64,000 nt of DNA, taken from assembly GCA_022979955.1 (NCBI GenBank), contig GCA_022979955.1_3642.1; one strand, 5' to 3'. The position numbers and the translations under genes are program-made. The DNA comes from a phage. Positions 16,545 to 59,728 of this stretch are shown here, piece by piece (positions within the stretch are counted from its first letter, which is position 1; the number at the start of each line of letters is the position of its first letter). The notes beneath the pieces were generated by a model. It saw only the letters and a list, made by a program, of their open reading frames with translations, ran no database searches and was not told the origin of the DNA.

Positions 16545-17870
16545 ATGAGTAAAACCAAATTAGAACTTACCTGGATAGGTAAAAACGAGCGCAAAAAGTT
16601 AGAGCCGCACATTTTGTTAGAAGATTCTAGCAAATCTTACCACAGCCAGAAAGTGACCGAAAACGATATTTTTGATAATAAACTGATTTTTGGAGATAAC
16701 TTATTAGCATTGAAGGCGCTAGAGCAAGAGTATGCAGGCAAAGTGAAGTGTGTTTACATAGACCCACCATTCAATACTGGAAGGGCTTTTGAGCACTACG
16801 ATGATAGCCTGGAGCATTCCATTTGGCTGGGCTTAATGAGGGATAGGTTAGAAATAATTCGTAATCTTCTAAGTGATGATGGGGTAATATTCGTTCACTT
16901 AGATGATTGCGAAATGGCGTATTTAAAAGTTTTGATGGACGAGATTTTTGGTCGTGCAAATCAGTTAAATACCATATCGATGACCACAAATTCCCCTTCG
17001 GGATTTAAGGCAACAGGAGCCACAGTTTTCTCCACAGCAAACTTTTTGCTTGTATATGCAAAAGATCGCACCCAGAAGCCGCTTAACAAAATCTATATAC
17101 CTAAAGGGTATGATACAGGATATAACAAATACCTATTAAACCCGGATGACCATTATAAAAATTGGACGTGGTGCGGTATTGCCGATGCGTTTGCAAAGGC
17201 CAATGGCTATAAAGATGCAAAAGAAGCCAAGAAAAAACTGCCTGATACATTCGATGATGAATTAGCACAATTCGCAATTGATAATGCAGAACGTGTATTT
17301 CAATCTGTTGCAATTGGCGGTGGTGCTAAAATAAAGAGAAAAGAAACTATCGAGAAGTCAAAGAAAGATAGGGATAGGGTTTATGTACATCCAAATGAAG
17401 ATGTTGAAGGATTTTATATCGCAAATGGTAGGCAGATGGTCTTTTACTCCAACAGGCTTTTGGAAATTGACGGTGAGATGCAACCTGCGGAACTAATAAC
17501 TGATGTTTGGACAGACATTAGTTGGAATGGAATAGCAAATGAAGGCGGCGTTAGTTTCAAAAATGGGAAAAAACCAGAAGCGCTTTTGAAGCGGATTTTC
17601 GAAATGTGTACGCGAGAAGGCGATTTGGTATTGGATTCATTCGGTGGTTCGGGAACTACTGCTGCTGTAGCTCACAAGATGAAAAGACGTTGGATCTCAA
17701 TCGAGCTAGGTGATCATTGTCATACTCATATTATTCCGCGCTTGGAAAAAGTGATCGATGGTGAAGATCAAGGTGGTATTTCTAAGTATGTAAACTGGCA
17801 AGGTGGTGGTGGCTTCCGTTATTACAAACTTACTCCGACCTTAATTACGAAAGATAAGTCTGATCAATAA
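16545..17870 (+). CDS. DNA methyltransferase, beta-class (Type III Mod-like; N6-adenine or N4-cytosine)
   Basis: Motif IV DPPF (YIDPPFN) precedes SAM motif I FxGxG (DSFGGSGTT); N-terminal LTWIGK as in Mod subunits; no adjacent Res-like gene. Confidence 0.75.
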   Translation: MSKTKLELTWIGKNERKKLEPHILLEDSSKSYHSQKVTENDIFDNKLIFGDNLLALKALEQEYAGKVKCVYIDPPFNTGRAFEHYDDSLEHSIWLGLMRDRLEIIRNLLSDDGVIFVHLDDCEMAYLKVLMDEIFGRANQLNTISMTTNSPSGFKATGATVFSTANFLLVYAKDRTQKPLNKIYIPKGYDTGYNKYLLNPDDHYKNWTWCGIADAFAKANGYKDAKEAKKKLPDTFDDELAQFAIDNAERVFQSVAIGGGAKIKRKETIEKSKKDRDRVYVHPNEDVEGFYIANGRQMVFYSNRLLEIDGEMQPAELITDVWTDISWNGIANEGGVSFKNGKKPEALLKRIFEMCTREGDLVLDSFGGSGTTAAVAHKMKRRWISIELGDHCHTHIIPRLEKVIDGEDQGGISKYVNWQGGGGFRYYKLTPTLITKDKSDQ

Positions 17871-17883
17871 AGAGTACAATCAA

Positions 17884-18189
17884 ATGATGAAATGTTATAA
17901 ACCATACACTTTTGAAATCGATTTCGAACTTGACGATATGTTCACTGTGGAAGCTCAGGCAGTTGTCCAGTTGCCAGACCCAGAGTGCCGTGATTCTGAT
18001 GTTGACTATTACGGATTTAGACAAATTACCGATGTGCATGTTTACCACAACGGTGAAGAGGTGGACTTCCACAAACTGCCAAACGATATGCGCCACTCAA
18101 TTTACAAACGTGCAGCCCGTGAACTAGAGTCATATCTGGATGCAGCGACGACAGCAGCTGCATTTGCTGAAGAAGTGGGAGGTTTCTGA
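17884..18189 (+). CDS. hypothetical protein
   Basis: 101-aa acidic ORF. Confidence 0.4.
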   Translation: MMKCYKPYTFEIDFELDDMFTVEAQAVVQLPDPECRDSDVDYYGFRQITDVHVYHNGEEVDFHKLPNDMRHSIYKRAARELESYLDAATTAAAFAEEVGGF

Positions 18190-18587
18190 TGATTACAGGT
18201 GTGAAGGTTATCCAATACCACTTAACCAAATTGGAAGATGCTGAAAAAGAGCTTGCAGAAGTTCTGAATAGTGGATATACTTTGCTATCATGCGCCTGCT
18301 CAGACACCTACGTTGTGTGGACACTTATCCGGAAGGAAGAGCCTGCAGGGATCTTGGTGCCAAACCCTAAGATTATTAGTGAGGTGGATGACTATCCCCA
18401 GGACGGCCTGCCAGAAGGCTGGGAAGTATGGGAAGGTGGTGAAAACCCTGCACCAGGTAAGTGGGTAAAATATAAACTACGTAGTGGTGCACAGTACGCT
18501 GACTACTCTGATGACCTAGACTGGAGTCATTCTTCACCAGGATCGTCTGCAAGTTCATATGATATCGTTGCTTTTCAGGAAGAATAA
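18189..18587 (+). CDS. hypothetical protein
   Basis: 132-aa ORF, ATGA-type overlap with upstream gene. Confidence 0.45.
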   Translation: MITGVKVIQYHLTKLEDAEKELAEVLNSGYTLLSCACSDTYVVWTLIRKEEPAGILVPNPKIISEVDDYPQDGLPEGWEVWEGGENPAPGKWVKYKLRSGAQYADYSDDLDWSHSSPGSSASSYDIVAFQEE

Positions 18588-18599
18588 GGAGATAGTGTT

Positions 18600-19082
18600 A
18601 TGTCAGATTTTATGTGGAAAGTAGGTTACGCAGCTCCTGAAATGTGTGAGGCTTGCTTTGTGAAAATAGGTCGCGAGGATATCGACAAAGTGATCCTTAA
18701 GTTTCGTGATGTGGCTGTGATCGGCAACCGAGTGCTTAAGCACTTAAAGAATCTGAAGCTCACCAAAAAGAAATTCTTCGGGCTTTTCGAAGAGAAAGTT
18801 GATGCTTGGACCCATTGCATTCAGGAAGCTAAATCTCACTACAGTGCTATCGTTACCCCAGAACGGGTAGCCAAGATGGAAGGACTCATCAACAGCACAG
18901 AGTTCGAGTGTCTGAAAGCTGCACTCGATAGTTATCCGAAATGCCTCAAGCACTTGGACAAGTATGTAGAAAAGGATGGGGAAATGTATCTCACCCTGGA
19001 CGCATATTATGAGATGCAAGAAATTTTAAATTTAGATTTGACATTGGTATCCACCGAGTATACAATAGGTATCCGGGTTTAA
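18600..19082 (+). CDS. hypothetical protein
   Basis: 160-aa ORF with GGAG SD. Confidence 0.45.
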   Translation: MSDFMWKVGYAAPEMCEACFVKIGREDIDKVILKFRDVAVIGNRVLKHLKNLKLTKKKFFGLFEEKVDAWTHCIQEAKSHYSAIVTPERVAKMEGLINSTEFECLKAALDSYPKCLKHLDKYVEKDGEMYLTLDAYYEMQEILNLDLTLVSTEYTIGIRV

Positions 19083-19089
19083 CACTAGG

Positions 19090-19116
19090 CCCTGCCCGAA
19101 AGGGTGGGGCTTTTTG
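19090..19116 (+). terminator. rho-independent terminator (repeated motif)
   Basis: CCCTGCCC-GAAA-GGGTGGGG hairpin (two G-U wobbles) followed by CTTTTTG; same hairpin recurs at 30172. Confidence 0.6.
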
Positions 19117-19133
19117 CATTAGGAGACAGCAAA

Positions 19134-19895
19134 TTGAAATTTATCTACAAAGAACACTACCACAAAGGTGTTGTGTGGAGCCTATTTGACGGATCTGGTG
19201 GTGCAGTCATTGACTGGGCAAAAGCTGGATATCTGTGCCTGTGCTTTAACGCAGAAGGTGCTGACCACGGCAGTTATGCAGAGGTGATCACCGATCATCC
19301 AAATATTCACTATGTAGATTATTGGATTGATCCATGGTTCCCTCAGGAAACTTTCTGCATGTACCCAGCTCCGGACTTTGTTCTTGCATTTCCTCCGTGC
19401 ACCCACTTAGCGGTGTCAGGTGCTGCACACTTTAAGAAGAAGCTGGCTAAGGACCCGTTGATCCAGATTAATGCTGTAAAGGATGCTCGGGTTGCAGAAG
19501 AGTTGGGAGAGATTTACGATTGCCCGTGGCATGTAGAGAATCCTGTGGGTGTTATGTCCACACTGTGGCGCAAACCTGATTACCGTTTTCACCCTTCTGA
19601 CTATGGCGGGTATTTACCGGAGGATGATGTAAACCCCTGGTTTCCTGAATTTATAGCTCCACGTGATGCCTATCCAAAAATAACTTGCGGCTGGATAGGT
19701 AATGGATTTATAATCCCGGCCACAAAACCTGTCCCGCAAATAGTTGACGCGGTTAGCGGGTATTCCATGCAACACGCCAAGCTGGGTGGAAAGAGTGCAA
19801 GAACGAAGATGATCCGAAGCCTCACACCACGTGGCTGGGCAAAAGCCGTATTCTTAGCAAACGAGCCTGCAGTAAGGAGAAGGGCAAATGGTTGA
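19134..19895 (+). CDS. C5-cytosine methyltransferase-like protein (short, PCT variant)
   Basis: TTG start 7 nt after AGGAGA; motif I FDGSGG, motif IV PPCT (in place of PCQ), motif VI-like HVENPVG. Confidence 0.55.
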   Translation: MKFIYKEHYHKGVVWSLFDGSGGAVIDWAKAGYLCLCFNAEGADHGSYAEVITDHPNIHYVDYWIDPWFPQETFCMYPAPDFVLAFPPCTHLAVSGAAHFKKKLAKDPLIQINAVKDARVAEELGEIYDCPWHVENPVGVMSTLWRKPDYRFHPSDYGGYLPEDDVNPWFPEFIAPRDAYPKITCGWIGNGFIIPATKPVPQIVDAVSGYSMQHAKLGGKSARTKMIRSLTPRGWAKAVFLANEPAVRRRANG

Positions 19896-20559
19896 CTGGA
19901 GCAAGTATTTCACCTATAGCGACGGCAAACTGTTCTGGGCGTATACCGCAAAAGCCGGAAGGGGTAGGATCATACATTACGCAGGTGAGGAGGCCACAGG
20001 CACAGATAAAGATGGCTATAGAGTAATAAATGTGTCAGGTGTTGGAAGTGTTCGTAGGCACAGAATAATTTGGGAGATGCATTACGGAGAGATACCTGAA
20101 GGTCTTGTTGTTCGGCACAAGAACGACATAGCAGGGGACGACAGGATAGAGAACCTAATCCTGGGGACACAAGGTGATAATGCACGAGACATGATCTACA
20201 GTGACAAGCTAAACATTAACAATACCTCAGGGTATCGTGGCGTGCGCTATCATAGAGGTATAAAAAGATGGACTGCATCTGCTGGAGACATATACTTAGG
20301 GTGTTTTAAGACAAAAGAGGATGCAATTGCATGCAGAAAGTTATGGGAGAAAGGAAAATTCGTCCCGCAAGAATTAGATGTTAGAAACACTAGCGGTGTA
20401 ACAGGGGTGTTCTATGTGCCGAGCTCTGGAAGGTGGAGAGTCCGAGTGCAAAGCGGCAAAAAGAGAAAGAGCTATGGCACTTACAACACTTTAGAAGAAG
20501 CAAAAGCTGTAAGGGATAAAGTGATGAAAGAGATTGAGGAGTTTAAAGATGGGGAATAA
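19888..20559 (+). CDS. HNH homing endonuclease with AP2 DNA-binding domains
   Basis: HNH region RRHRIIWEMHYG...VRHKNDIAGDDRIENL; two AP2-like repeats (SGYRGVRYH...GCFKTKEDA and SGVTGVFYV...YNTLEEA). Confidence 0.75.
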   Translation: MVDWSKYFTYSDGKLFWAYTAKAGRGRIIHYAGEEATGTDKDGYRVINVSGVGSVRRHRIIWEMHYGEIPEGLVVRHKNDIAGDDRIENLILGTQGDNARDMIYSDKLNINNTSGYRGVRYHRGIKRWTASAGDIYLGCFKTKEDAIACRKLWEKGKFVPQELDVRNTSGVTGVFYVPSSGRWRVRVQSGKKRKSYGTYNTLEEAKAVRDKVMKEIEEFKDGE

Positions 20560-22627
20560 GTTTATACCCTCTGCATATAGCCGCTATGGAGAACCTAACC
20601 CAGTTGCAACAAGATACAAAAGCGGAGGTAGTATGAAACGAGACTATCGCGATGAAAAAGAGGTTGAAACTGTAGAGACCGTTTTAGAAAATACTAAAAT
20701 TGTCCCTGTCCCACAACAAAATATCGGTCTGATGGCTGCACAATATTTTGGTGTGCGATCAGCATTGTCCCAAGAGGACGGTGTGACAGTAACTGCAACA
20801 TATTTCCCATATTACGACCGCTACGGAAATCTATCTGGCTTTAAAAAGCGTGATTGGTCTAAGCCAAAAGAGCAGAAAGGGCACTGGTCTGTAGTGGGCA
20901 TAGTAAAGGCTAACTCCCAGATGTTTGGTCAAAAGCTGTGTGCATCTTCCAACAACCGTAAGCAGATTAATGTTTGTGAGGGAGAAGGTGATGTTATTGC
21001 AGCATGGCAGGCTGCATATCAAATACAAGTAAAAGGGATTCTCACCAACGCTAAAGCCCCGGCAAAGGTGAAACAGTGGGCTAAAGAGGTCCAGGACGGG
21101 ATCGATGCAGTTATCAACGGGGGTGATTTGGCAGGAAAACCCTGCCTGCCTTTTGTTGGAATTAACTGTGGATGTGCAAACGCAGTAGATACTTTTGCAA
21201 ACAATGAGAAATTTATCCGTAGCTACGGAACAGTGGTCCTTGCAATGGACAACGATGCGGCTAACGAGGTAGAGAAGCAAAAACACGTTATAAAAGGTGT
21301 TGAAGCCACACATAATATTGCAGCATTTTTGATGGCTGACAACGTTTACCACGTGGAATATCCTGGCGAGGTAAACGACCCTGATGGTGTAAAAGATATC
21401 CGTGACATGCTGAAGGCTAAAAAGCTGGAAGATATTGTAAACATGTTCCGGCATCCTGTTAAGTATGTGCCTGATGCTGTGTCGGATTTAGAAGACTTCT
21501 CTATCGAATCTTTGCGGAAAAAGACTTCCAACGGGGTAGATATCAGCGCAGAGTTTCCAAAACTGCAAAAAATGCTAAAAGGCTTGCACAAAGGGACACT
21601 CGTAATGCTTACAGGTCCATCAGGAGGTGGTAAAACAACTGTAGCCAAAAAACTGGAACACTGTATTGCAAGATACCTAATGGACCCGACATGTCCAAAG
21701 GCCGATGACTACGAAGAGGATGATCGTCTATGCATGATTCATCTTGAGGAGGACCCAGAGGAAGCAATTAACTCCTTGTATGCAAACCAGTTAGGGTTTG
21801 ATGTTAAAGAGTTTGTTGAAGATCCTAGCCAGTTTTTAACTGATCAAGAACATGCAGAGATTCACCAATCATGGGCAAAAGCTGGAAAAATCAAAGTGTT
21901 CAAACATTTCGGGTCTATTCCAGTGGACGAGTTGATTACCAAGCTTAAGCAAATGGTCTGCCTGTACCATTGTCGCTATATTGTGCTGGATCACCTGTCT
22001 ATGGTAATTTCAGGGCTTAATGTTAAAGATGAGCGAAAAGAACTGGACATGGCTATGACTCAGCTGGCTGCGTTTTGTAAGCAGTTTAACGTGTTTATCT
22101 TGGTGATCGCTCACCTCAAACGTACAGAGATTGTGCCTCCTAAGGACAAGGATGGTAACCCATTACCTTTCTGGTATCCTGTGCGAAAAGAGAATTTGCG
22201 AGGATCGGCTGGGCTTGAACAGTTGAGTTGGGTAGTCATAGGTGTCGAGGCCGAAGAAATGGTGGATCGTTCTCGTGGACGTGTCCGTCTGGTAGGTCTT
22301 AAAAACCGTCCAGCAAAAACTCTAGGTATTGCTGACACTTTGGTTATGGACCCGCACACAGGTAAGTTCCATGATGCCAGTAATTGGTACTGGGACAAAG
22401 AAATGCAAATGTTTACAGACGGAGAAGGTGGGGAGGTTGTTTGGAGACCTCAGGCTATGTTTGAGGATCAGGAGCATGCAGTTGTAGAAACACCTATGGG
22501 CAAGGTTGTGGCTGATAAGGTTGTAACTCCTACTGTTAAGCCTGTTGACACGCAGGAAGACCTCCAGTACGATGATCCATCCTCTGACCCGGTCCCTGGT
22601 TTTGAGGATGATGAAACGCCTTTTTAA
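20549..22627 (+). CDS. DNA primase-helicase (TOPRIM + DnaB-like)
   Basis: ATG 7 nt after GAGGAG; TOPRIM motifs CEGEGD and MDNDAA in N-terminal half; helicase Walker A GPSGGGKT and Walker B-like VLDHLS in C-terminal half. Confidence 0.8.
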   Translation: MGNKFIPSAYSRYGEPNPVATRYKSGGSMKRDYRDEKEVETVETVLENTKIVPVPQQNIGLMAAQYFGVRSALSQEDGVTVTATYFPYYDRYGNLSGFKKRDWSKPKEQKGHWSVVGIVKANSQMFGQKLCASSNNRKQINVCEGEGDVIAAWQAAYQIQVKGILTNAKAPAKVKQWAKEVQDGIDAVINGGDLAGKPCLPFVGINCGCANAVDTFANNEKFIRSYGTVVLAMDNDAANEVEKQKHVIKGVEATHNIAAFLMADNVYHVEYPGEVNDPDGVKDIRDMLKAKKLEDIVNMFRHPVKYVPDAVSDLEDFSIESLRKKTSNGVDISAEFPKLQKMLKGLHKGTLVMLTGPSGGGKTTVAKKLEHCIARYLMDPTCPKADDYEEDDRLCMIHLEEDPEEAINSLYANQLGFDVKEFVEDPSQFLTDQEHAEIHQSWAKAGKIKVFKHFGSIPVDELITKLKQMVCLYHCRYIVLDHLSMVISGLNVKDERKELDMAMTQLAAFCKQFNVFILVIAHLKRTEIVPPKDKDGNPLPFWYPVRKENLRGSAGLEQLSWVVIGVEAEEMVDRSRGRVRLVGLKNRPAKTLGIADTLVMDPHTGKFHDASNWYWDKEMQMFTDGEGGEVVWRPQAMFEDQEHAVVETPMGKVVADKVVTPTVKPVDTQEDLQYDDPSSDPVPGFEDDETPF

Positions 22628-22685
22628 TGTTTAACAAAGAGTGGGAGGGGTAGTACAACCGCCTCCCCTTTAAGGAGAACTGTAT

Positions 22686-25049
22686 ATGAGTATGTGGTCT
22701 TTCGATTTTGAGTCATCCGGTTTGCTGGAAGACCCAGATCTTTATTATCACTGCGGTCTGTTTAAAGAGCTGAATAAGAACCGTTTTATGCTGTTCCTTC
22801 CTCTAAATGACCGCACACACTACTCCGAGGAGGATATAGAAAAGGCTAAGAACTTCATTCTGGCAAAGAAAACTCTTTATAAAGATTTTGAAGTTCGCAT
22901 AGCAGATTTTTCGGAGTTGGAAGGTTGGCTTACAGGCAATTCTGACTGGTCACCAACAGCTTTGAACTGCCATAACTGCTACAGTTATGACTTTATGCTG
23001 ATGGAAAGATTATCCGGTATTCATTTTGACATGTTCCGTGATCCTAAATGCATGGGGACTATCAACGACCACCAGGTTAACCTGTTTGATACGTTGGCGA
23101 TGAGTCGAATCTTGTGGCCTGATCGCCCTTTACCAAAAGGTTGTCCGGACTCTGTATTCAACCCGGTCACTAAGAAAATGCAGCCTGTTGGTCCTCACGG
23201 CCTTATGGCATGGGGCTATGCTCTTGGTAACCAGAAAGTTCAAATTGATGACTGGCGCGATCTTCCGTTATGGAAGTATGTGGATCGTGTATTTGAGGAC
23301 GTTATCATCCAGGAGCTGCTCTGGAAAGAACTGGTAGCGGAATCAAAAGGTGTATTCTACGGCAAGTCTGACATGCAGAACTTTATGTACGATCCTGCCA
23401 AAGAGAAGCCGAAAGGGTTCAAGAAGATCACCTGGAAGAACGCACTACGCCGAGGCATGCTGCAGCACTTCCTGATGGAGCTGCAGGCCCGTCAGGGTGT
23501 GTATTTTGACATAGATGGAGCTATTGCTTTACGTGACCGTTGTGATGCGTGGATGAAAGAAATAGCTGATCGTGTTGAACCACAACTACCTTTAAAAGAG
23601 CTGTCAATGTCTCAGCGGCCCAAGTTCCCTGAAAAGCCGTTTAACCAAGATGGGACAATCTCCAATAATGGTTGGAAATGGTTAAAAGATAAGCTTGGCT
23701 ATCCTGTAGACATGAGCGCTTTAGAGTTCAAAGCCCCGCCTAAGCGAGCATTTACCTCCACAGGAGATGTCAGTAAGATGGGGATAAAATGGTGTGAAGA
23801 GATGGGCTGCAAAGACCCTGATAAGATGGCTGATTTCTTGAGAGGCTATATTAAGGGCACTTCCACACCACAACCTTTACCTAAAGAGCTGATGGATCAG
23901 GCAATAAGTGATCTACAGCAGAAGCGAATGCCGGACTGCAAGATACCTATGAAAATCAGCAATCAGGACGACATTAAGCGATACCTGATCAGTGCTGGTT
24001 GGCTTCCGACAATGTGGAGAACTAAGGATGTAACTAAAGACAGCAAGAAGAAAGCTCTACCTGATGCAGATGTTGATGCACGAGTATATGCATATATGGA
24101 CGAGCTTTTAGAGTCAGAGTATTGTGACCTGATTATCAACTTCTGGAACAAAACTGATGCTAAGTTCCAGACAACCGTGCACAAGTTCCGAAGCTTTCCT
24201 AACTCCGAAAGGATTAAAAAGGAAGTATTCGGGAAAATACGTAGAAAAGCTAGGGCACTTATTACTTCTCCGCAACTGAAAGATACGTTTGGACACCTAT
24301 GCCCTAATCTTGAAAAATTGAACGGAGAGATGGCTAAAGATATCGTCTTGTGGTTATCATTGCGAAACCGCAGATCGGTCCTTGATCCAATCAAGGAGGA
24401 TAAGGTTGATACTGGTCTTCTTAATCACCCACGTTTGAAGATTGACCATAAGCTTCCTGCTAAAAGTTCTGGATTAACAAACACTTCCCGACAGAAACAC
24501 AGTATTTGTGCAAACATGCCTAAACCATCTCCTAAAGTGGTTATGGGTAAAGAGATGCGTAGTCTGTGGGGTGTTCCTCCAGGATACTTTGAGATCGGTA
24601 TTGACGGGTCCAACTTAGAGCAGCTTATCGGGGCTTGGGGTGCCTTTGAGTTCGACAACGGCCTGTATTACGATGTTGTAAGTAACGGAGACGCACACCA
24701 AAACAATGCTGAGGCATATACAAAAGTAGCAGGCAGAGAGGTGTCCCGTAACGACGGTAAACCTATCACGTATGGGGTTATGTACGGAGCACAAAAAGAT
24801 AAAGTTGCAGATATGCTGGACATCTCTCCAGAGTTGGGACAAAGGGTAATCGATGCGCTTTGGGATGCCAACCCTGGTCTTAAGGGCCGTAAAGAGGATC
24901 TGGAGAAATTCTGGGAAGCAACGGGTAAGAAGTTTATCTACTCTTTTGATGGTCATGCCATCTGGACCAGATCTAAACACTCTTTACTTAATGCATACCA
25001 ACAGAATGGTGGTGCATCGCTGTGTGACTTGGTTGGGATACTCATGCAC
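22686..25049 (+). CDS. DNA polymerase family A (T7/Pol I-like), exon 1
   Basis: N-terminal 3'-5' exo motif SFDFESSGL...HCG; motif A-like IDGSNLEQL; motif B RNDGKPITYGVMYGA; reading frame continues to a stop at 25115 inside the putative intron. Confidence 0.7.
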
Positions 25050-25739: not shown

Positions 25740-25788
25740 TGTAAACTATCAACACATGGAAGTGTTGTTGAGCAAAGAGGAGACTTTT

Positions 25789-35235: not shown

Positions 35236-35634
35236 ATGAAAACCACAACCTTTAATTTTGATAATGCCGACTTCTCTTTTTCTGATGTCAAGAACTGCCG
35301 CCGTGATCGTGGATTTTACAAGGCTTATAATCTGGTTGGCCTGGACGATGATAATAATTTGCACGAAGTAGCGGAGATCCGGTACTATGCCGCCGCCAGC
35401 GGTAACACTAACTATTGCGTTTTTTGGATACACGACAACAAGAACAATAAGTACGGTTATACTGGCGGCAAGGCGAGCGGTCACGGTTATGATAAAGCTA
35501 ACGCAGCACTTGAGAGCGCATTAAATGCTATGGGGATCACTGCCAACGGCTGGGTCTATGAAGAAGAGTTTTTGTCGGCACTTGCTGACCATCTAGGCTA
35601 TAAAAAGCACATTGTAACATGCGCCCACGAATAA
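35236..35634 (+). CDS. hypothetical protein
   Basis: 132-aa ORF with AAGAGGA SD. Confidence 0.45.
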   Translation: MKTTTFNFDNADFSFSDVKNCRRDRGFYKAYNLVGLDDDNNLHEVAEIRYYAAASGNTNYCVFWIHDNKNNKYGYTGGKASGHGYDKANAALESALNAMGITANGWVYEEEFLSALADHLGYKKHIVTCAHE

Positions 35635-35640
35635 AAATCA

Positions 35641-35668
35641 TTGACACGCTGCAAAATTTAAGTAAACT
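35641..35668 (+). promoter_or_regulatory. sigma70-like promoter
   Basis: TTGACA-16-TAAACT followed by leader hairpin GGGAA-TGT-TTCCC. Confidence 0.5.
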
Positions 35669-35716
35669 AGGCACAAAAGGTGGGAATGTTTCCCGCCAAC
35701 ACGAAGGAAAAAGATC

Positions 35717-36121
35717 ATGAATAAGAACATACGCCGCATCATGAACGAACTGGCAAACGATGAAAAAATTATTGACATGCATTTAGTCAACATTTGCCGC
35801 CGTTGTGTAACATATAACAACCGCGCCGCAAAAGCGCGTGAGATGAACGCAAAAGGCACCTTAAAGCCATTCCAGGTGGTGGTAAAGGCCATTAAAGATG
35901 TAACTAATACGGCAAACCAGGTACAGGGGAACACCAACGAGAGTACCAATATTGATCCGGCTTACATCATGAAACGGATCCGGACCTGCAAGAACAAAGA
36001 GCAAGTGTATAATGTCATAGACTGGTTGGATTCTATGGGCGATGTGGTTTACAATAGGTTTTCTGCAGCTATCGAGATCCAGCTTGACAGGTTGGACGGT
36101 AAAGTACTGAAAACTTACTAA
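35717..36121 (+). CDS. hypothetical protein
   Basis: 134-aa ORF with AAGGAAAAAG SD. Confidence 0.45.
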   Translation: MNKNIRRIMNELANDEKIIDMHLVNICRRCVTYNNRAAKAREMNAKGTLKPFQVVVKAIKDVTNTANQVQGNTNESTNIDPAYIMKRIRTCKNKEQVYNVIDWLDSMGDVVYNRFSAAIEIQLDRLDGKVLKTY

Positions 36122-50201: not shown

Positions 50202-50290
50202 ATAAGCACCTTACTGAAATACAAGACACAGTGTTAAGGTTACTGACCAGCAAATAATTAACAGTGCCGTTGCAACCTTGGCAAGATTTA

Positions 50291-51518: not shown

Positions 51519-51594
51519 TCGGTCTCCTATCTTGTTAAGATGAAGGTATTATTTCACACAGGGTTGGCGTTGTCAACACCTGTGTGCAAGAAAA

Positions 51595-52322: not shown

Positions 52323-52326
52323 ATTC

Positions 52327-52590: not shown

Positions 52591-52684
52591 ATAGTATCAC
52601 CTCTGGCAAGAGATGGGGATTCCTTTCCCACAAATAATTACAAACTTTTCTTTTTATTGAGGGAGTATGCTAATCAAAGCAGGA

Positions 52685-52954
52685 TTACTCTTCTACAATC
52701 TCATACACATCAGGAGTTACAATCAACTCTTCTCCGTTACCTGGTGCAACAAACACCACCAAGCCTTCAGGTGTGTGCTTTTTAGCCATCTCGATGACAT
52801 CTTCTCGCAGAGCTGGCTCCATCAGATCAAAGCCTTCACCCAGTGCATCACGAACTACCTTCATGTAGTCCACTGGTTGTGCTTCAACGATCATGCCTTC
52901 AACCAGTCCGCAGTTTTTGTCTGCCAGCTCAGTTTTGAATAATTTAATTTTCAT
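52685..52954 (-). CDS. small acidic protein, paralog family A
   Basis: MKIKLF... ending ...YEIVEE. Confidence 0.45.
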   Translation of the reverse strand: MKIKLFKTELADKNCGLVEGMIVEAQPVDYMKVVRDALGEGFDLMEPALREDVIEMAKKHTPEGLVVFVAPGNGEELIVTPDVYEIVEE

Positions 52955-52980
52955 TTAGAGGTCTCCTCGATTATTTGATA

Positions 52981-53082
52981 TTAATAGCCGTAACCTAACA
53001 CATTAACTACAACTGCGATTGCAAACATAATTTCAAAGCATGCAATCTCTACATTTGGGACTAATTTCTTAATCATACCCAT
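52981..53082 (-). CDS. small hydrophobic peptide (33 aa)
   Basis: ATG after GAGGTG on minus strand; hydrophobic core. Confidence 0.3.
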   Translation of the reverse strand: MGMIKKLVPNVEIACFEIMFAIAVVVNVLGYGY

Positions 53083-53091
53083 TGTAGCACC

Positions 53092-53409
53092 TCAATCCCA
53101 AAAGTCAATCTTTACTTTACCTTTTCCCTTACCTTTCTTTCCACCGCATTTAGCCAACTGGCGTGCTGCAACATCCACCATACGGTCAGTTGCCTCGTAA
53201 GCATCGCTACCTTTAGCTTTGGCGATAACTTCTTTCCCAGAATTGTCAAAAATAAAAGCCATAACTTCCTGGTGATCATTTTCAACTTTTACACTCACAC
53301 GTGCATAGTTGGCAGAGGGGTGCAAGCGCTCCAGCTTGGACATTTTGTGGGAAATGAAAGACACCATACCTTCAGTGATCTCTACGTTGCCAGTGATTTC
53401 AATCTGCAT
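53092..53409 (-). CDS. hpf: ribosome hibernation promoting factor (HPF/RaiA family)
   Basis: MQIEITGNVEITEGM...KLER...VKVE...AKGSDAYEATDRMVDVAARQLAK closely follows bacterial HPF/YfiA sequence pattern as recalled; Lys/Gly-rich tail. Confidence 0.8.
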   Translation of the reverse strand: MQIEITGNVEITEGMVSFISHKMSKLERLHPSANYARVSVKVENDHQEVMAFIFDNSGKEVIAKAKGSDAYEATDRMVDVAARQLAKCGGKKGKGKGKVKIDFWD

Positions 53410-53456
53410 AACGTGCTCCTTTTAAAGAAGAGGGAACCAAACCCTCTTTGAAAATA

Positions 53457-53485
53457 ATGATACTAAAGATCAAATGTTGTGTCAA
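53457..53485 (-). promoter_or_regulatory. sigma70-like promoter for hpf
   Basis: TTGACA-17-TATCAT on minus strand, then leader hairpin AAGAGGG-TTTGGTT-CCCTCTT and AAGGAG. Confidence 0.55.
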
Positions 53486-53491
53486 CAGTTT

Positions 53492-53782
53492 TTACAGCTT
53501 GTCGTCGATAGTTTTTAAAATATCTACTGCAAGATCTGCCATTTTACGAACATACTCTGCAAACTCAACAGGATCCTTGATCAATGAGTTCACAGGGTCA
53601 TACCCTAAAGCGTTTAAAATGGCTACAGCATCCACAACCTTCTCATCATTTGCGAAGATCTCACCGTCAAACTTGTAGGTCCATTTTGAGTCAATCTTGG
53701 CATGGCAGGATTGGTCCATGCTTATTACACCATCTTTTTTAAACGATTCGGTGTTATCAGTGTCCAAAACTAAATCCATCAT
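53492..53782 (-). CDS. hypothetical protein
   Basis: 96-aa ORF. Confidence 0.4.
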   Translation of the reverse strand: MMDLVLDTDNTESFKKDGVISMDQSCHAKIDSKWTYKFDGEIFANDEKVVDAVAILNALGYDPVNSLIKDPVEFAEYVRKMADLAVDILKTIDDKL

Positions 53783-53799
53783 GTAAGTACCCCACTATT

Positions 53800-54198
53800 T
53801 CAGCTTATTTTTTCTTCAACAACCCCGTAGCTCGGGGCAGAGTCAAGAGCTTTCTGGTTTAAAAGTGGTGTAGCAGAATCTGCAAACGGTGTCCAAGTTT
53901 TTGTTCTGGCATTCCAGTAATGCTTCACTCTGGAATCCGGATGCACTATAACAAAAACTTTTTCACTTGTCAACACATTAATTTCTTCTACACCCTTGCT
54001 GATAATTTCTCCGTCATAGCCCCCAGTCTGGTATCCTTCGTACCAGGTTCTTGCATAGGCATAGCCAGCCTGCCAGCATGCAGCCTCCTCCGAGGTGGAG
54101 ACTACGTAGAAGTCTTTCTCAAATTCCGGAATACGCCCTTGCTTTACGCTCCAAGCTCCGCGAATTTTCATTGTAACTTTGAACAGTTTATTTTTCAC
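53800..54198 (-). CDS. hypothetical protein, paralog family B
   Basis: Shares KVFVIVHPDS...YW...TWTP with 51595..51990. Confidence 0.45.
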   Translation of the reverse strand: MKNKLFKVTMKIRGAWSVKQGRIPEFEKDFYVVSTSEEAACWQAGYAYARTWYEGYQTGGYDGEIISKGVEEINVLTSEKVFVIVHPDSRVKHYWNARTKTWTPFADSATPLLNQKALDSAPSYGVVEEKIS

Positions 54199-54210
54199 AA
54201 CGGTTACCCA

Positions 54211-54465
54211 TCACAGCTCTACAATATCTGCATCTGACCCTGCCCCAAAGGCATAATAGGACTCTTCCCCGAAATAATATTCAGGTGCACCAGCGGTGAT
54301 CAGGTCTGCTCCTAAGATAAACACCACGTTGTGGCCTACATAACTGTGATGTTGCCGCACAGGATCATCCCACGGCAACCCTTCGAAGTATACCGCAGGA
54401 ACGACCTTTCCATTCAGGAAGGATTGTCCCAAGTAGACGTTAGAATCAAGAATTTTAACCTTCAT
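54211..54465 (-). CDS. small acidic protein, paralog family A
   Basis: MKVKILDSNVYLGQ...GADLITAGA...; tandem with 54455. Confidence 0.45.
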   Translation of the reverse strand: MKVKILDSNVYLGQSFLNGKVVPAVYFEGLPWDDPVRQHHSYVGHNVVFILGADLITAGAPEYYFGEESYYAFGAGSDADIVEL

Positions 54466-54682
54466 GATCGTCCTCCACTACCTCTACATCCTCACCTAGG
54501 GCAAAGTTGTAGGTCCACTGACTGTCAAAGCATTCCTGAGATGCACCAGCGGCAATAAGATCTGCTCCTTTTATTTTTAAAAGGTCATGGTAATCTTCGT
54601 TAGGGACAGCAGTAAACACTTTTCCTACTAAAGGATCCTGACCAATATAGAAGCTTGAATCTAAAACTTTAACTTTCATCAA
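54455..54682 (-). CDS. small acidic protein, paralog family A
   Basis: MMKVKVLDSSFYIGQ...GADLIAAGA...EVVEDD. Confidence 0.45.
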   Translation of the reverse strand: MMKVKVLDSSFYIGQDPLVGKVFTAVPNEDYHDLLKIKGADLIAAGASQECFDSQWTYNFALGEDVEVVEDDHEG

Positions 54683-54963
54683 CGGTCTCCATCAGGTGGT
54701 TGTGGGACGTAAACACTGTTACGAATATCGTCCGCAGTATAGTAATAAGTGTCTCCAACCCTATCTCTGGCTGCAATGTACTCTGCTATACCAATAAGTG
54801 CCATTGATTTGGTGGCGTATCTTCCCCATTCGTTAGCTCCCCAGCAAAATCTCTGCCAAAACGGTATGAAACCGAATAGGTACACCTTCTGTTTCACTAT
54901 CCAATAAGTTCCTTTACAGATCACTTTAAACTCTGCAGCACTGTTACTGACACCATTGTTCAT
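54679..54963 (-). CDS. hypothetical protein
   Basis: 94-aa ORF. Confidence 0.4.
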   Translation of the reverse strand: MNNGVSNSAAEFKVICKGTYWIVKQKVYLFGFIPFWQRFCWGANEWGRYATKSMALIGIAEYIAARDRVGDTYYYTADDIRNSVYVPQPPDGDR

Positions 54964-54975
54964 TATCTTCTCCTT

Positions 54976-55260
54976 TTATTTTTCTGGGTTTGGCAGATAT
55001 TGCACATTGGCAGGAGGAACACCGGATAGCTCCCAAACAACCATAGTGCTGTACCCTGGCACACTTCTAACATTTAAAAGAGTAGGAGCACCAACACATT
55101 TAAACTTCCTTTTCCCAAATCCGTTCTCCATCATAACCCAGTATCCGGTATCCTGATCACCTGGAATTTGTGTTCCATCATCGTCCACCCAGCGGACGGT
55201 CCATTTTGATACAGCAACGGCTCGGTATTTAAACTTTTTAAACCACTCAAACAGTTTCAT
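54976..55260 (-). CDS. hypothetical protein
   Basis: ATG at 55260 lies 8 nt after GAGG; longer ORF start overlaps upstream gene. Confidence 0.4.
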   Translation of the reverse strand: MKLFEWFKKFKYRAVAVSKWTVRWVDDDGTQIPGDQDTGYWVMMENGFGKRKFKCVGAPTLLNVRSVPGYSTMVVWELSGVPPANVQYLPNPEK

Positions 55261-55444
55261 CTTCAGCCTCGCTTGGCAGCTCTTCCATTTTGACATACCG
55301 GAAAGTGTTGCCGTAATAGTTGATCCATGACATCAGCTCGCTTTCTTGCTCTTCCTCTGGGATTGACTCTCGGATGCTGACAAGTTTTAAGAAAATCCAA
55401 TCACAATCTACACCCATCCTACCAGACAGGCAATAGTGCTTCAT
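55247..55444 (-). CDS. hypothetical acidic protein
   Basis: 65-aa ORF. Confidence 0.35.
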   Translation of the reverse strand: MKHYCLSGRMGVDCDWIFLKLVSIRESIPEEEQESELMSWINYYGNTFRYVKMEELPSEAEDETV

Positions 55445-55462
55445 AGAACCCTCCCGACTGGT

Positions 55463-55657
55463 TTAGAATATTGCTTCTTCCATTGCACCTGAGAGCAACA
55501 AAGAGGTAATATGGCTAACATTCATCTCAGACTCTACTTCCTCCCCTTTGAAAGGTTCGCGGCAGAATAGGACTGTTTCAGGACTTTTACTTCGAACAAT
55601 ATAATACAAATCATTCAAAGTGTTGTAGTAATAAGTGTTAAAACGTAAGTTTTTCAT
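55463..55657 (-). CDS. hypothetical protein
   Basis: 64-aa ORF. Confidence 0.4.
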   Translation of the reverse strand: MKNLRFNTYYYNTLNDLYYIVRSKSPETVLFCREPFKGEEVESEMNVSHITSLLLSGAMEEAIF

Positions 55658-55941
55658 TTTCTAGTCCCCTTCTTAGATTTTTGTGCAGAAACGCTTTCTG
55701 CAATACGAGACAGGCGTTCTTCTGAAGCTTTACCTACCCCAGGTTTCTTGAGCGGGTTATCTTTATGACCGCAATCCAATTGGATGCTAGATACCTCCCC
55801 AACCTTGTAAGTCAATTCTAACAAAAGGTTGTCGTCCTTGTCAAATGTTTTTACGATAAATTTTTTATCGTCCTCCTGAACCTCATATCGGGTACCTGCA
55901 GTATACAGCATGGTGCCATCAGTATAGGATATCCAGATCAT
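55654..55941 (-). CDS. hypothetical protein
   Basis: 95-aa ORF, overlaps neighbours by 4 nt. Confidence 0.4.
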   Translation of the reverse strand: MIWISYTDGTMLYTAGTRYEVQEDDKKFIVKTFDKDDNLLLELTYKVGEVSSIQLDCGHKDNPLKKPGVGKASEERLSRIAESVSAQKSKKGTRK

Positions 55942-56285
55942 TGAGCCTCCTTCTGCTGCAACAGCATTAACTCTTTGTTAGAGATCTTTACTGCTGTTTT
56001 TATTGTTCCATCTTCACGGAACCACGACCAGAACTCTACAGTGTCACCACTATCAAGCAAAGCATGCCCATGGTAAAAATCCTTGTCCTTAGACAGTTTC
56101 TCATCTATATCTGCATCAACACATTCGTGATCCATAGCATTTTGCCTGAATGCATCGGTTATGCCAATGCATGCCTTGCTCTCAAGACTGGTATATCCGA
56201 TATCTTTTAATTCAGTTTCCCAAGTCCAGTATCCTACAAAAGCTACAACAGCTGCCCACATTAATACCGACTTAATCTTTGGCAT
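55938..56285 (-). CDS. protein with N-terminal signal/TM segment
   Basis: N-terminus MPKIKSVLMWAAVVAFVGYWTW. Confidence 0.4.
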   Translation of the reverse strand: MPKIKSVLMWAAVVAFVGYWTWETELKDIGYTSLESKACIGITDAFRQNAMDHECVDADIDEKLSKDKDFYHGHALLDSGDTVEFWSWFREDGTIKTAVKISNKELMLLQQKEAQ

Positions 56286-56345
56286 TCTCTCTACCTCTTT
56301 CTTAGTTTATTTAATCATGGCACATCCTTTGTGCCTTGTTGCACA

Positions 56346-56807
56346 CTACTTGAACAACAGTTCAAGATAGTGCAAAATTAACAGAAGTTGAATTACGCCT
56401 AGCACAACGGCGAGTATGTTAATCTTAGAATCAAAAAACTTCTTAACTTTTACCCTAAAAGGCTCTTTAATGTCCTTTACGATCCTATTTATAGATGATT
56501 TCATATCCCTGATTACCATCCTAAACATTAGAGACGGATCCTCCTTCTCTGTAACAGAATCGAAAACATACTCTCTTCGGTCATAAGGCCCTCCAGATCT
56601 GCGTATTAACCTCTCCACAGAGACCTCGTACGACACACCTGTAACGTAATCATCTATGACAAGTAGTGACGGGTCTTTATCATCCAAGGGTATCAAAGTT
56701 ATCTTTCCAGATCTTGTTAAAATTTCTCCTTTTTCAAGCAAGGTGTACCAATGCTCTCTACCAAGGTTGTTGAGGCACGTTTTTACATATTTAACAAACA
56801 TCGTCAC
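56346..56807 (-). CDS. protein with C-terminal TM anchor
   Basis: C-terminus ...ILAVVLGVIQLLLILHYLELLFK. Confidence 0.45.
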   Translation of the reverse strand: MTMFVKYVKTCLNNLGREHWYTLLEKGEILTRSGKITLIPLDDKDPSLLVIDDYVTGVSYEVSVERLIRRSGGPYDRREYVFDSVTEKEDPSLMFRMVIRDMKSSINRIVKDIKEPFRVKVKKFFDSKINILAVVLGVIQLLLILHYLELLFK

Positions 56808-57007
56808 CCCTCATCACACGTCTGATATAACCATTCTATGAAATCTTGATACCACTCTCCCTCTGAGCGCTCCGTAGGCCAATAATCTTCCCCCTCTCTT
56901 GCATTAAAATCTGAGTATTCGACTTTCCACTCCTTTACCAGCTCGTGGAGAAGGTTTTCAGCCTGTTCTAAGGATTTATTTTTTGTCATTACTGTCCCCT
57001 TTTTCAA
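56804..57007 (-). CDS. hypothetical protein
   Basis: 67-aa ORF. Confidence 0.4.
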   Translation of the reverse strand: MKKGTVMTKNKSLEQAENLLHELVKEWKVEYSDFNAREGEDYWPTERSEGEWYQDFIEWLYQTCDEG

Positions 57008-57209
57008 GATAATTATACATTAGTGCCGCACCACCCAAAATGGCTACCAGCAGTAATACTCCGGAGAGCATTTCAATAAACATGGCTTGAAACATTAGAA
57101 GGTCCCCTCTAATTTCACGCACCATTTTAAATACACACTCTTTTCCCATGAAGATACTGAACTAAGGTCTGTATAGAATGCAATCTCCCTAAGAACAGTA
57201 TAAACAGTT

Positions 57210-57446
57210 TCAGTCACTGTTACCATTCTTATCTTCCTCCTTCATTTTTCTGACGGTTTTACAGTGATCTACCAAGCACATAACAACAATGAAGAGAACG
57301 ACAGGCCAAAAAGGTGCGGCAGTGATTATAGTTATAAAGTCGTCAAACTTAATTTTTCTACAAGATATGATGCAAAGAGTTGCTAAAACAACCATTGTCA
57401 GAAAGGTCAATGCGCAATACCAAACCAACACAGTATCTATGGCCAT
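57210..57446 (-). CDS. small membrane protein (two TM helices)
   Basis: 78-aa hydrophobic ORF. Confidence 0.4.
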   Translation of the reverse strand: MAIDTVLVWYCALTFLTMVVLATLCIISCRKIKFDDFITIITAAPFWPVVLFIVVMCLVDHCKTVRKMKEEDKNGNSD

Positions 57447-57447
57447 A

Positions 57448-57975
57448 TTACATCTCCTGGTTCAAACTGTTAAGAAAGGATACTCTGTCTTCGCTATTTT
57501 TCTCTGTGATATACCCTCCAAACATGGAAAGAATCACATGCTTCAAGTAATCTTTTTCTGGGTCGCTTAGATGATTGCGTGGCTTTATTTCCACATCATG
57601 GTAGTCATACAATCCACAATCATGATACCCCCAGTATCGACACACCTCAATACTGATCGGGAGTTTTTTGTCACACGAAACTTTCCAACGGGTTACGTTG
57701 TTACCAGGGGATAAATCCTCGCCCACCTTCACGAATGACAAATCGTAATTCATAAACTTTTCGTGCAGTTTAAGTACAAAACCCTCTACCTGTGGAGAAA
57801 CACCAGCCACTAGCTGGGCGTATCTATATTTACTTTCAATAATTTTTCGGCGCTTTGCTGTAAGGTTTATTGCAGCAATTTGACTCTCTGAGTATCTCCA
57901 AGGCTTATATATAAATGCTTTCGGGTCTTTATCGCCATAAAAATCTTTCCAATCAACCAGTAGCATACCTGTCAC
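57448..57975 (-). CDS. hypothetical protein
   Basis: 175-aa ORF. Confidence 0.45.
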   Translation of the reverse strand: MTGMLLVDWKDFYGDKDPKAFIYKPWRYSESQIAAINLTAKRRKIIESKYRYAQLVAGVSPQVEGFVLKLHEKFMNYDLSFVKVGEDLSPGNNVTRWKVSCDKKLPISIEVCRYWGYHDCGLYDYHDVEIKPRNHLSDPEKDYLKHVILSMFGGYITEKNSEDRVSFLNSLNQEM

Positions 57976-58205
57976 TCCTCCACAACTTCAAGGCCTTTGC
58001 CGCCTCGTTCTGGTAGATTACTTAAAGACAGGTAATACGTATAGTCAGGAGAGATCCTGCCAGACTCTGCACCTGCAGATAGTAAATCTTTTCCCTTAAC
58101 CATGACAACATTATCGTTTGCAGATAGTCGTTTTGCTTCCACAATTTTACCAACGCAGTCAACCAAGGAAGGGTACCCTAAATCTGTAAGAAATTTAACT
58201 TTCAT
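57972..58205 (-). CDS. small acidic protein, paralog family A
   Basis: MKVKFLTDLGY...GKDLLSAGAE...LEVVEE. Confidence 0.45.
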   Translation of the reverse strand: MKVKFLTDLGYPSLVDCVGKIVEAKRLSANDNVVMVKGKDLLSAGAESGRISPDYTYYLSLSNLPERGGKGLEVVEE

Positions 58206-58244
58206 GCTACCTCCTACTTCTACCGTCCCTGGTAAGATAAATTA

Positions 58245-58643
58245 TTACTGAACAGAGCGCGGAGCTGGGAAGGATAACTCTTCTAAAGAGAAGATTTCAT
58301 TCCCCACAATCCATGTTGCAGGATCATCTGGGTTGACTGGATAGATAATCATCACCTCGTCAGTGTTACATACCCGCTTTTTACCTGTGGAGTCATCAGC
58401 GACCAGCATGCGCGGTTCTTCAGAAATGCACAGGTAGCCTCCTCGGCCCACTGTTCCTTCCACAGGATCTTGTCCTTTGATCACGATGATTATCTTCTCT
58501 CCTGAGGTGATATTACCTTGCACACTCACCGTTTGACCAACTTTAGATGTGCCGAACTTGGTGGTTTCAAACATTAAATCTCGAATTACTGTTGCATAGT
58601 CTCCAGACACTTTCTTACCTTCTTTAGTGATCTCAATCTTCAT
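58245..58643 (-). CDS. hypothetical protein
   Basis: 132-aa ORF starting MKIEIT. Confidence 0.45.
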   Translation of the reverse strand: MKIEITKEGKKVSGDYATVIRDLMFETTKFGTSKVGQTVSVQGNITSGEKIIIVIKGQDPVEGTVGRGGYLCISEEPRMLVADDSTGKKRVCNTDEVMIIYPVNPDDPATWIVGNEIFSLEELSFPAPRSVQ

Positions 58644-58906
58644 ACACTGGGCTCCTTAAATGAATCTATGTAATCAATTAAATCCCAAGCATCCCTATGA
58701 CCTGTCAGAGGGTATACTTCTCCAAGAGGGATCATAGCAATAAGTCTATCAAAAACCCAATCTGGGCGCAACATTTTATGGTGATACTCCCACTCACCTT
58801 CTACAGATTTTTTCTGAGTAATCAGGATCTCTGTGTAGTGTTTCGCCTGTCTTGAGTAAATTGAAAATGACTTGTACATAAATGACCCCCTTGTTGAGAA
58901 CAACAA
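58640..58906 (-). CDS. hypothetical protein
   Basis: 88-aa ORF. Confidence 0.4.
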   Translation of the reverse strand: MLFSTRGSFMYKSFSIYSRQAKHYTEILITQKKSVEGEWEYHHKMLRPDWVFDRLIAMIPLGEVYPLTGHRDAWDLIDYIDSFKEPSV

Positions 58907-58913
58907 TACATAA

Positions 58914-59198
58914 CTACCAGGTTACTGTCAAGTAGGCAACCGTGTTATTTTTCTCTGGAGAGATGCCAACAACATCTACCTGCAGACCTCCTGCCCTCAA
59001 ATCCCCAACAATATGCGGGAAGTAATCTGAGAGATGTGAGGGTAGATTTATCGAAAATCCGCATCCCAGAAAGCCTGCTAACGCTTTATTTTGTATCTCC
59101 CCTACAATCGCATCATAAATGGAGTTAAGCTCGTCAGGGAGCGTTACAGGACGTTTTAGCGCTAACTGGTGCAACTTGTCCTTAGCACTCATTTTCAT
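58914..59198 (-). CDS. hypothetical protein
   Basis: ATG at 59198 forms ATGA overlap with the Dam-like gene stop; the longer ORF to 59267 would overlap that gene by 73 nt. Confidence 0.4.
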   Translation of the reverse strand: MKMSAKDKLHQLALKRPVTLPDELNSIYDAIVGEIQNKALAGFLGCGFSINLPSHLSDYFPHIVGDLRAGGLQVDVVGISPEKNNTVAYLTVTW

Positions 59199-59728
59199 TT
59201 CAAATCTGCCTCTGGTGGTGCCAACCACATAAATGGCGGCAAGTTTAGACGGTTTTTCTTGTCCCATACAAAATATGCATATGCCTGCCCATCCGTTCTA
59301 CCATTGGATTGGAATGACGGGCGCTTAGATATTGTGATCACAGTGGTAGGTGCATTATCAAGCCACCATTCAAATCTGGCCTTGCTTTCCAGAAAATTAA
59401 GACGCAAAAGCATAATAACTACGTCAGCATCTTTCAACGCCTTGTCTACAAACTCACGAGCCAGGCTGTATGGTGGGTTGGTGATAATACAGTCAACATG
59501 GTTGTATTCTGTATTCAGATAGTCAACACCTTCTTGGATTTCTCCCCATGCAGATCCTAACGGCATACGGGAGTAGAACACACCTGAGGCACTATTCCTG
59601 CAAGGCTCTAAGTAGGTCCAGTCTTCTGGGAACGGAATAAGGTCATACAGCCCTTCTGCACACCACTCCGGTGTCACATACTCATCGTAGGCGTTACGTT
59701 GTTCATCAGGTTTTCTAGCACAAGTCAT
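59195..59728 (-). CDS. phage Dam-like N6-adenine DNA methyltransferase
   Basis: Catalytic NPPY motif (DCIITNPPYS); N-terminal YVTPEW motif. Confidence 0.65.
   Translation of the reverse strand: MTCARKPDEQRNAYDEYVTPEWCAEGLYDLIPFPEDWTYLEPCRNSASGVFYSRMPLGSAWGEIQEGVDYLNTEYNHVDCIITNPPYSLAREFVDKALKDADVVIMLLRLNFLESKARFEWWLDNAPTTVITISKRPSFQSNGRTDGQAYAYFVWDKKNRLNLPPFMWLAPPEADLK

Follow-up and report, generated by a model that had tools for sequence, protein, structure and literature searches.

The DNA analyzed here is a 64-kb stretch (64,000 nucleotides, the window below) of phage sequence from contig GCA_022979955.1_3642.1 of GenBank assembly GCA_022979955.1. It contains three open reading frames (ORFs), designated ORF A, ORF B, and ORF C, that encode orphan methyltransferases of three different classes, as an earlier note made from the sequence alone had proposed, and they lie at the coordinates given there. 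The genes and the active-site positions discussed below are as follows.

16545-17870, plus strand: ORF A, orphan type III Mod-like beta-class amino-methyltransferase, 441 amino acids (from PF01555, PADLOC MTase_III, and Mod relatives in the PDB)
19134-19895, plus strand: ORF B, compact C5-cytosine DNA methyltransferase of a "PCT" family, 253 amino acids, TTG start (from fold and motif comparison)
19395-19403, plus strand: PCT codons of ORF B, with Cys89 at 19398-19400
59195-59728, minus strand: ORF C, minimal gamma-class N6-adenine DNA methyltransferase, 177 amino acids, predicted to be GATC specific (from motif order, fold, and the Bas51 orthologue)
59468-59479, minus strand: NPPY of ORF C, within IITNPPYS (sequence motif)
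59522-59524, 59492-59494, and 59480-59482, minus strand: Asp69, Asp79, and Thr83 of ORF C

The regions around all three genes are 96 to 99% identical at the nucleotide level to approximately 120 GenBank records of rV5-like Escherichia phages, including rV5, JES2013, FFH2, PDX, and the BASEL phages EmilHeitz (Bas49), WalterGehring (Bas51), and MaxBurger (Bas54). On sequence identity, we assign the source phage to the rV5-like Escherichia phages of the genus Vequintavirus. The three genes and their biology are already known, and the GenBank records of relatives annotate them as "putative N6 adenine methyltransferase," [quoted passage not shown] "Dcm-like C5 cytosine methyltransferase," or "DNA methyltransferase." The window is very probably part of an rV5-like phage with three stand-alone DNA methyltransferases, of which ORF C modifies GATC, ORF B produces 5-methylcytosine (5mC), and the Mod-like ORF A modifies a further site.

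The orthologue of ORF C in WalterGehring, bas51_0176, is 98.3% identical to it in nucleotide sequence, encodes a protein of the same length (177 amino acids) with the same D69, D79, and T83, and occupies the same place beside a ClpP-like protease gene. The comparison gave no notable difference beyond the origin of bas51_0176 in a different isolate within the genus. In a 2025 study, retrons Asa1 and Squ1 were triggered by the Bas51 protein called "N6 adenine methyltransferase," which is toxic when expressed alone, and the engineered substitutions D69G, D79G, and T83P prevented this triggering. ORF C alone among the methyltransferases of Vequintavirus has D69, D79, and T83; the residues at these positions are C, G, and E in ORF A, F, A, and V in ORF B, and Q, A, and I in a fourth enzyme described below. 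Nanopore sequencing in the same study counted methylated adenines in wild-type Bas51 at GATC (1,405), GTAC (509), and other sites (576), while the T83P mutant had 35, 511, and 349, respectively. Scaling the 326 GATC sites of the window to 140 kb gives approximately 1,420 adenines, which indicates that GATC methylation in Bas51 is essentially complete. Genome self-modification has therefore been demonstrated in the genus Vequintavirus, and ORF C is predicted to methylate the GATC adenine, presumably on both strands at essentially every phage site, as shown for its Bas51 orthologue.

ORF C had been described as a Dam-like NPPY enzyme. The NPPY motif is present and the Bas51 orthologue methylates GATC, but the architecture is that of M.TaqI rather than that of Escherichia coli Dam. 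The motif order of ORF C (Y-TP, EPCxGxG, D-IITNPPY) is that of the gamma class, and M.TaqI was the best match both by profile and by fold. Neither an alpha-class architecture nor a significant match to a Dam model was found: PF05869, the phage "Dam" family, scored 19.3 bits, below its cut-off of 28.1, TIGR01712 scored 16 bits against a cut-off of 97, and no Pfam model matched significantly. E. coli Dam, an alpha-class enzyme of approximately 278 amino acids, shares the GATC N6-adenine target with the ORF C orthologue, while ORF C has the gamma-class order, no separate target-recognition domain, and 177 amino acids. Like M.TaqI and the type I HsdM subunits, ORF C has a catalytic core with motif X followed by motif I and then NPPY. 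In those enzymes, the core is accompanied by a large recognition domain at the C terminus or by a separate S subunit, whereas ORF C consists of the core alone.

The second mark in Bas51, at GTAC, was independent of the ORF C orthologue. GTAC sites are underrepresented in the window (113 observed versus 182 expected, a ratio of 0.62), as is CTAG (ratio of 0.54), while GATC (0.97) and CCWGG (∼0.85) are not. When the 113 sites are scaled to 140 kb, the Bas51 count corresponds to essentially complete GTAC methylation on both strands. We know of no activity of the E. coli K-12 host that methylates GTAC, which together with the independence from ORF C indicates that another phage enzyme makes this mark. 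The maker in Bas51 is either ORF A or a fourth methyltransferase of the relatives, which lies approximately 15 kb past the window end.

35274-36092 of record L002, minus strand: fourth methyltransferase, 272 amino acids, MaxBurger bas54_0191, with EPSAGRGSF and GNPPF (gamma-like)

A characterized GTAC adenine methyltransferase, M.HpyAXII, belongs to the gamma class, and this analogy may slightly favor the fourth enzyme.

The assignment of ORF A as a type III Mod-like beta-class enzyme was borne out. ORF A matched PF01555 (N6_N4_Mtase) in Pfam with an E value of 5e-42 and the PADLOC model MTase_III with an E value of 4e-204 over residues 1 to 439. The closest solved structures are the type III Mod subunits 6k0w and EcoP15I Mod 4zcf (E values of 1e-28 and 1e-23 for the Mod matches in the PDB). 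The catalytic DPPF (residues 73 to 76, window positions 16761-16772) lies N-terminal of FGGSGTT, which is found near the C terminus, and this is the beta-class motif order. ORF A thus combines a beta-class N6_N4 core containing DPP(Y/F) with a match to a Mod model, and like EcoP15I Mod and the Helicobacter pylori Mod 6k0w, it has a central variable region. It differs from these subunits in length (441 versus 618 to 644 amino acids) and in the lack of a Res partner, and relative to the Mod profile it is missing the C-terminal part and approximately 50 N-terminal residues. No Res-like ORF was found near ORF A, where the neighbors are a Dda/PIF1-type helicase gene and small ORFs without a match to a defense model, nor is a Res gene annotated next to it in relatives.

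ORF A could be read as a decaying, nonfunctional remnant of a type III restriction-modification system, since it spans only positions 2 to 444 of the 575-position Mod profile and has no accompanying Res gene. Its distribution also points that way. ORF A is present at an identity of at least 80% in ∼88 of ∼119 rV5-like records and absent from about a quarter of them, making it an accessory gene in these phages, and a relative in Campylobacter phage CPt10 carries a pseudogene annotation. In EmilHeitz (Bas49), a run of six T replaces the run of five at window positions 16669-16673 (approximately 16670-16676 in L001), and owing to this frameshift the annotated coding sequence begins downstream of the DPPF motif. 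Either true inactivation or an error in sequencing could account for the frameshift. We nevertheless consider decay unlikely. In the window, ORF A is intact, preceded by an AAGGAG ribosome-binding site, and retains DPPF and FGGSGTT. Over ∼87 phages its protein is 94 to 99% conserved and was recovered by tblastn as a single unbroken piece in each except Bas49. Furthermore, Bas51 has an intact ORF A along with the phage-encoded GTAC mark, for which this gene is one of the two candidates. ORF A would accordingly serve as a type III Mod-like adenine methyltransferase that acts without Res on a further site, possibly the GTAC of Bas51 or an asymmetric sequence.

ORF B had been described as a C5-cytosine methyltransferase-like protein of about 254 amino acids starting at 19134, in which the catalytic Pro-Cys is followed by Thr instead of Gln. 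We obtained 253 amino acids with a TTG start at that position and the active-site stretch FPPCTHLAVSG, with ENP at residues 135 to 137. Scans of ORF B against Pfam, NCBIfam, and PADLOC produced no match, so that no curated C5-methyltransferase model recognized it significantly, and only PHROG 757 matched. A profile of the ORF B family reached DNMT2 and HaeIII with E values of only 0.2 to 0.5, and a few family members do carry a precomputed PF00145 match. The predicted structure, however, is a confident model with a class I methyltransferase fold specific to the C5-methyltransferase catalytic domain. In hhalign comparisons with known methyltransferases, C89 aligned with C81 of HhaI and E135 with E119, and thus the motif IV Pro-Cys nucleophile and the motif VI Glu are both present, as PCT and ENP variants.

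Homologues of ORF B are numerous, with 3,522 matches in a protein database clustered at 90%, and at 50% clustering the family has 2,033 representatives, mostly of 210 to 260 amino acids. They occur in 1,502 of 50,697 sequenced phage records (∼3%), whose hosts are mainly Escherichia, Klebsiella, and Salmonella, and which include many T1-like Drexlerviridae. Conservation, counted over 117 diverse members, was seen at F86, P87, P88, C89, T90, G96, K103, E135-N136-P137, and W145-R146-K147-P148, followed by Y157-G158-G159-Y160, D178, Y180, K182, T184, W187, P195, and R228-S229-x-T231-P232-x-G234. Position 90 is Thr in 101 members, while C89 is kept in 109 and E135 in 114. The prevalence of PCT and the typical length indicate that both are traits of the family and not peculiarities of this phage.

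ORF B resembles M.HhaI, M.HaeIII, and DNMT3A/B (PF00145) in its fold, the motif I Phe, the Pro-Cys nucleophile, the motif VI Glu, and the C-terminal helix. The best canonical match was DNMT3, whose recognition domain is the smallest. It departs from the canonical enzymes in having PCT for PCQ, ENP for ENV, and approximately 60 residues in place of the canonical recognition domain, and in falling below the Pfam threshold. No motif VIII (QxRxR) was found, as the family reads GYLPEDD after Y157-G158 with no Arg there, and the Gly-Asn of motif X is replaced by R228-S229 in a region where the alignment is of low confidence. These departures suggest that the mechanism of ORF B is noncanonical in its details.

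The earlier note had raised PCT and the short length as possible signs of altered chemistry, and a characterized relative bears directly on this. Phage K42 is 95% identical to the BASEL phage KarlJaspers (Bas06), and its 711-bp dcm gene is the trigger of retron Ec86/Eco1. Expression of K42 Dcm raised 5mC in multicopy single-stranded DNA (msDNA), as measured by liquid chromatography coupled to mass spectrometry (LC-MS) against a 5mC standard, while a C82A/E128A/K175A/K176A mutant did not. The lysines equivalent to K182 and K183 of ORF B were proposed to bind the substrate in the K42 enzyme. The CCWGG specificity given for K42 Dcm was carried over from E. coli Dcm and is backed only by mutation of the site in msDNA. 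The Bas06 gene, bas06_0055, encodes 236 amino acids with C82, E128, K175, and K176 in place, and ORF B is 53% identical to it over 235 residues (E value of 3e-86). Both proteins are compact (236 versus 253 amino acids) and share FPPCT, ENP, the CFN form of motif II, YxKKT, and IRSLTPRG, and both are encoded by orphan phage genes near replication genes. The K42/Bas06 enzyme differs in coming from a T1-like siphovirus and in the loop before KxGGKS, which is of the NPGW type there and of the GYSMQH type in ORF B.

As K42/Bas06 Dcm carries PCT and yields 5mC, a PCT enzyme of the ORF B family makes ordinary 5mC, and altered chemistry of ORF B is not supported by this comparison. Cys89 of PCT would act as the nucleophile and Glu135 of ENP would activate the flipped cytosine, giving 5mC from S-adenosylmethionine (AdoMet). 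A different sequence specificity of ORF B is possible, because its loop at residues 196 to 216 differs from that of the Bas06 protein, and its target site may differ as well.

A more radical alternative is that ORF B transfers a group other than methyl, for example as a carboxy-S-adenosylmethionine (Cx-SAM)-dependent C5-carboxymethyltransferase like phage CmoX, which would use a cofactor made by host CmoA. CmoX (8YF3) has SPPC in motif IV, an Arg at the motif X Asn position (Asn304 of HhaI), a canonical motif VIII, and a colocated CmoA, and ORF B lacks all four. Its motif IV is FPPC, and in both hhalign modes and an ungapped comparison, Arg228 aligned with Gly303 of HhaI and Ser229 with Asn304, the position of Arg350 in CmoX, which places the Arg of ORF B beside the critical position and not at it. 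The majority of CmoX contigs carry CmoA, but neither the window nor 909 kb around 80 members of the ORF B family yielded a homologue of CmoA or CmoY. Since K42 Dcm, with the same PCT and IRS motifs, also gave 5mC by LC-MS, we regard transfer of a nonmethyl group as highly improbable and retain 5mC as the expected product.

Within the family, the enterobacterial-phage subgroup that includes ORF B has Asn at motif II (residue 39, approximately 19248-19250), where 104 of the 117 members of the wider family have Asp, and W-I-D at motif III (residues 64 to 66, approximately 19323-19331), where the wider family has D-L. Loss of AdoMet binding, suggested by this Asn and by the nonconserved first Gly of motif I, was considered and rejected, as this Asn is also present in the active Bas06/K42 enzyme. 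The loop preceding KLGGKS (residues 196 to 216, approximately 19719-19781) occurs in the subgroup in two variants, GYSxQH and NPGW, which from their sequences may be indicative of different target specificities. Two viral contigs from metagenomes (L055, 4216-5259, and L067, 4803-5384) have a canonical C5-methyltransferase gene (GFPCQ, ENV, RQR, GN) directly downstream of a PCT-family gene, and thus some phages carry PCT and canonical C5 enzymes together. A literature search for 5mC mapping of the family returned HHpred-based annotations only.

A broader and more tentative proposal, which we consider possible but more doubtful than not, is that the PCT family forms a structurally distinct minimal lineage of C5-methyltransferases. 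Having no motif VIII arginines and no canonical recognition domain, its members would perhaps read DNA through the ∼60-residue insert that contains the invariant D178, Y180, K182, T184, W187, and P195. Under the same proposal, the rV5-type members, whose recognition loop differs from that of the tested K42 enzyme, could methylate a site other than CCWGG. Independently of this, ORF A could be the GTAC enzyme. If so, ORF A would have a palindromic, both-strand specificity that is unusual for a type III Mod-like enzyme.

The leader of ORF B contains three further features, each identified by consensus match only.

19038-19066, plus strand: sigma-70-like promoter site, TTGACA-17-TACAAT (11 of 12 consensus positions)
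19087-19112, plus strand: terminator-like hairpin
19121-19126, plus strand: ribosome-binding site, AGGAGA

The mechanical ORF call began at GTG 19104, inside the hairpin. We place the start at TTG 19134 for this reason and because AGGAGA precedes it and relatives annotate the same start. The terminator-like hairpin follows within ∼20 nucleotides of the near-consensus putative promoter and is succeeded by the ribosome-binding site and the TTG. Judged from its sequence, such a leader could limit expression of a toxic methyltransferase.

The genes neighboring the three methyltransferases encode a Dda-type helicase, a primase/helicase, a ClpP-like protease, and a PhoH-like ATPase, and the remainder are small ORFs without matches. 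Pfam and PADLOC scans of the neighboring ORFs, small ones included, gave no match to a restriction or defense model, in agreement with the proposal that the methyltransferases have no adjacent restriction partners. One nuclease gene lies next to ORF B.

19888-20559, plus strand: HNH_3 and AP2 homing endonuclease (Pfam HNH_3, E value of 2e-17; AP2, E value of 2e-10)

It shares 8 nucleotides with the end of ORF B and separates ORF B from the primase/helicase gene. For most relatives, coverage of the query region here is only 87% and the gene is lacking; it is present in a few (Phage 203/206, EmilHeitz, and HeinrichReichert). It is absent in Bas51, where the primase/helicase gene directly follows the ORF B orthologue. 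From this restricted distribution, the homing endonuclease gene is a mobile element that was inserted recently between ORF B and its primase/helicase neighbor. We considered the gene as a restriction partner of ORF B and rejected it, as it is an HNH_3 and AP2 homing endonuclease that most relatives do not have. No tRNA genes were found within the window. More than 12 unannotated GenBank records of the MG0656xx series, named "Campylobacter phage" with Campylobacter jejuni as host, are 96 to 99% identical to this E. coli rV5-type phage and are probably mislabeled or contaminant assemblies.

The three enzymes would modify the replicating DNA of the phage itself and the DNA of the host incidentally. 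Self-protective modification had been proposed as their role, and here the modification is real in Bas51, at GATC and GTAC, while protection by it is at most plausible. The likely benefit would be protection from restriction enzymes of matching specificity, and the marks could protect at most against enzymes that cut GATC, GTAC, or the site of ORF B. The BASEL study described the Vequintavirinae as "exceptionally susceptible" to the restriction systems tested and seemingly lacking effective protection in the laboratory. Retrons sense the relatives of ORF B (K42 Dcm) and ORF C (Bas51) that have been studied, and both proteins show toxicity by themselves. The documented cost lies in toxicity upon overexpression and in activity on retron msDNA that sets off abortive-infection defenses. 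To our knowledge, none of the restriction systems tested in BASEL targets GATC, GTAC, or CCWGG, and the sensitivity seen there therefore does not contradict site-specific protection.

An alternative is that RNA is the main substrate of ORF C, and possibly of ORF B, or that the role of these enzymes is not antirestriction but, for example, the regulation of phage replication, packaging, or gene expression, or the countering of methylation-sensing host systems. DNA, however, is the substrate demonstrated for the orthologue of ORF C, at phage GATC sites, and for the homologue of ORF B, in msDNA, and the restriction systems tested in BASEL would not be expected to be blocked by GATC, GTAC, or CCWGG methylation. 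We consider an RNA-directed or non-antirestriction role quite improbable. A literature search found no methylome or digestion study of rV5 itself.

Several observations weigh against a phage with three active DNA methyltransferases. The experimental support comes from relatives (Bas51 and K42) and not from the phage analyzed here. ORF B shares only 53% identity with the enzyme that was tested, differs from it in loop 196-216, has no recognizable motif VIII, and has R-S in place of G-N in motif X. The activity of ORF A is deduced from sequence, and the gene is absent from about a quarter of the relatives and frameshifted in Bas49. Finally, in BASEL the Vequintavirinae showed high sensitivity to every restriction system tested. 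Set against the Bas51 methylome and the 5mC activity of K42 Dcm, these points leave three stand-alone methyltransferases as the reading that we favor.

Two of the three methyltransferase families already have direct experimental support, and the finding therefore carries little weight as a discovery. The ORF B family, found in ∼3% of sequenced phages, has no curated Pfam or NCBIfam model, solved structure, or mapped specificity. For rV5-type phages used in therapy and typing, the results mean that GATC and GTAC would be fully methylated in their DNA, which would probably also contain 5mC. Such methylation has consequences for restriction mapping, for nanopore basecalling, and for host range among strains whose restriction systems match it or depend on methylation. 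Methyltransferases of the ORF B and ORF C types are, in addition, determinants that retron defenses sense.

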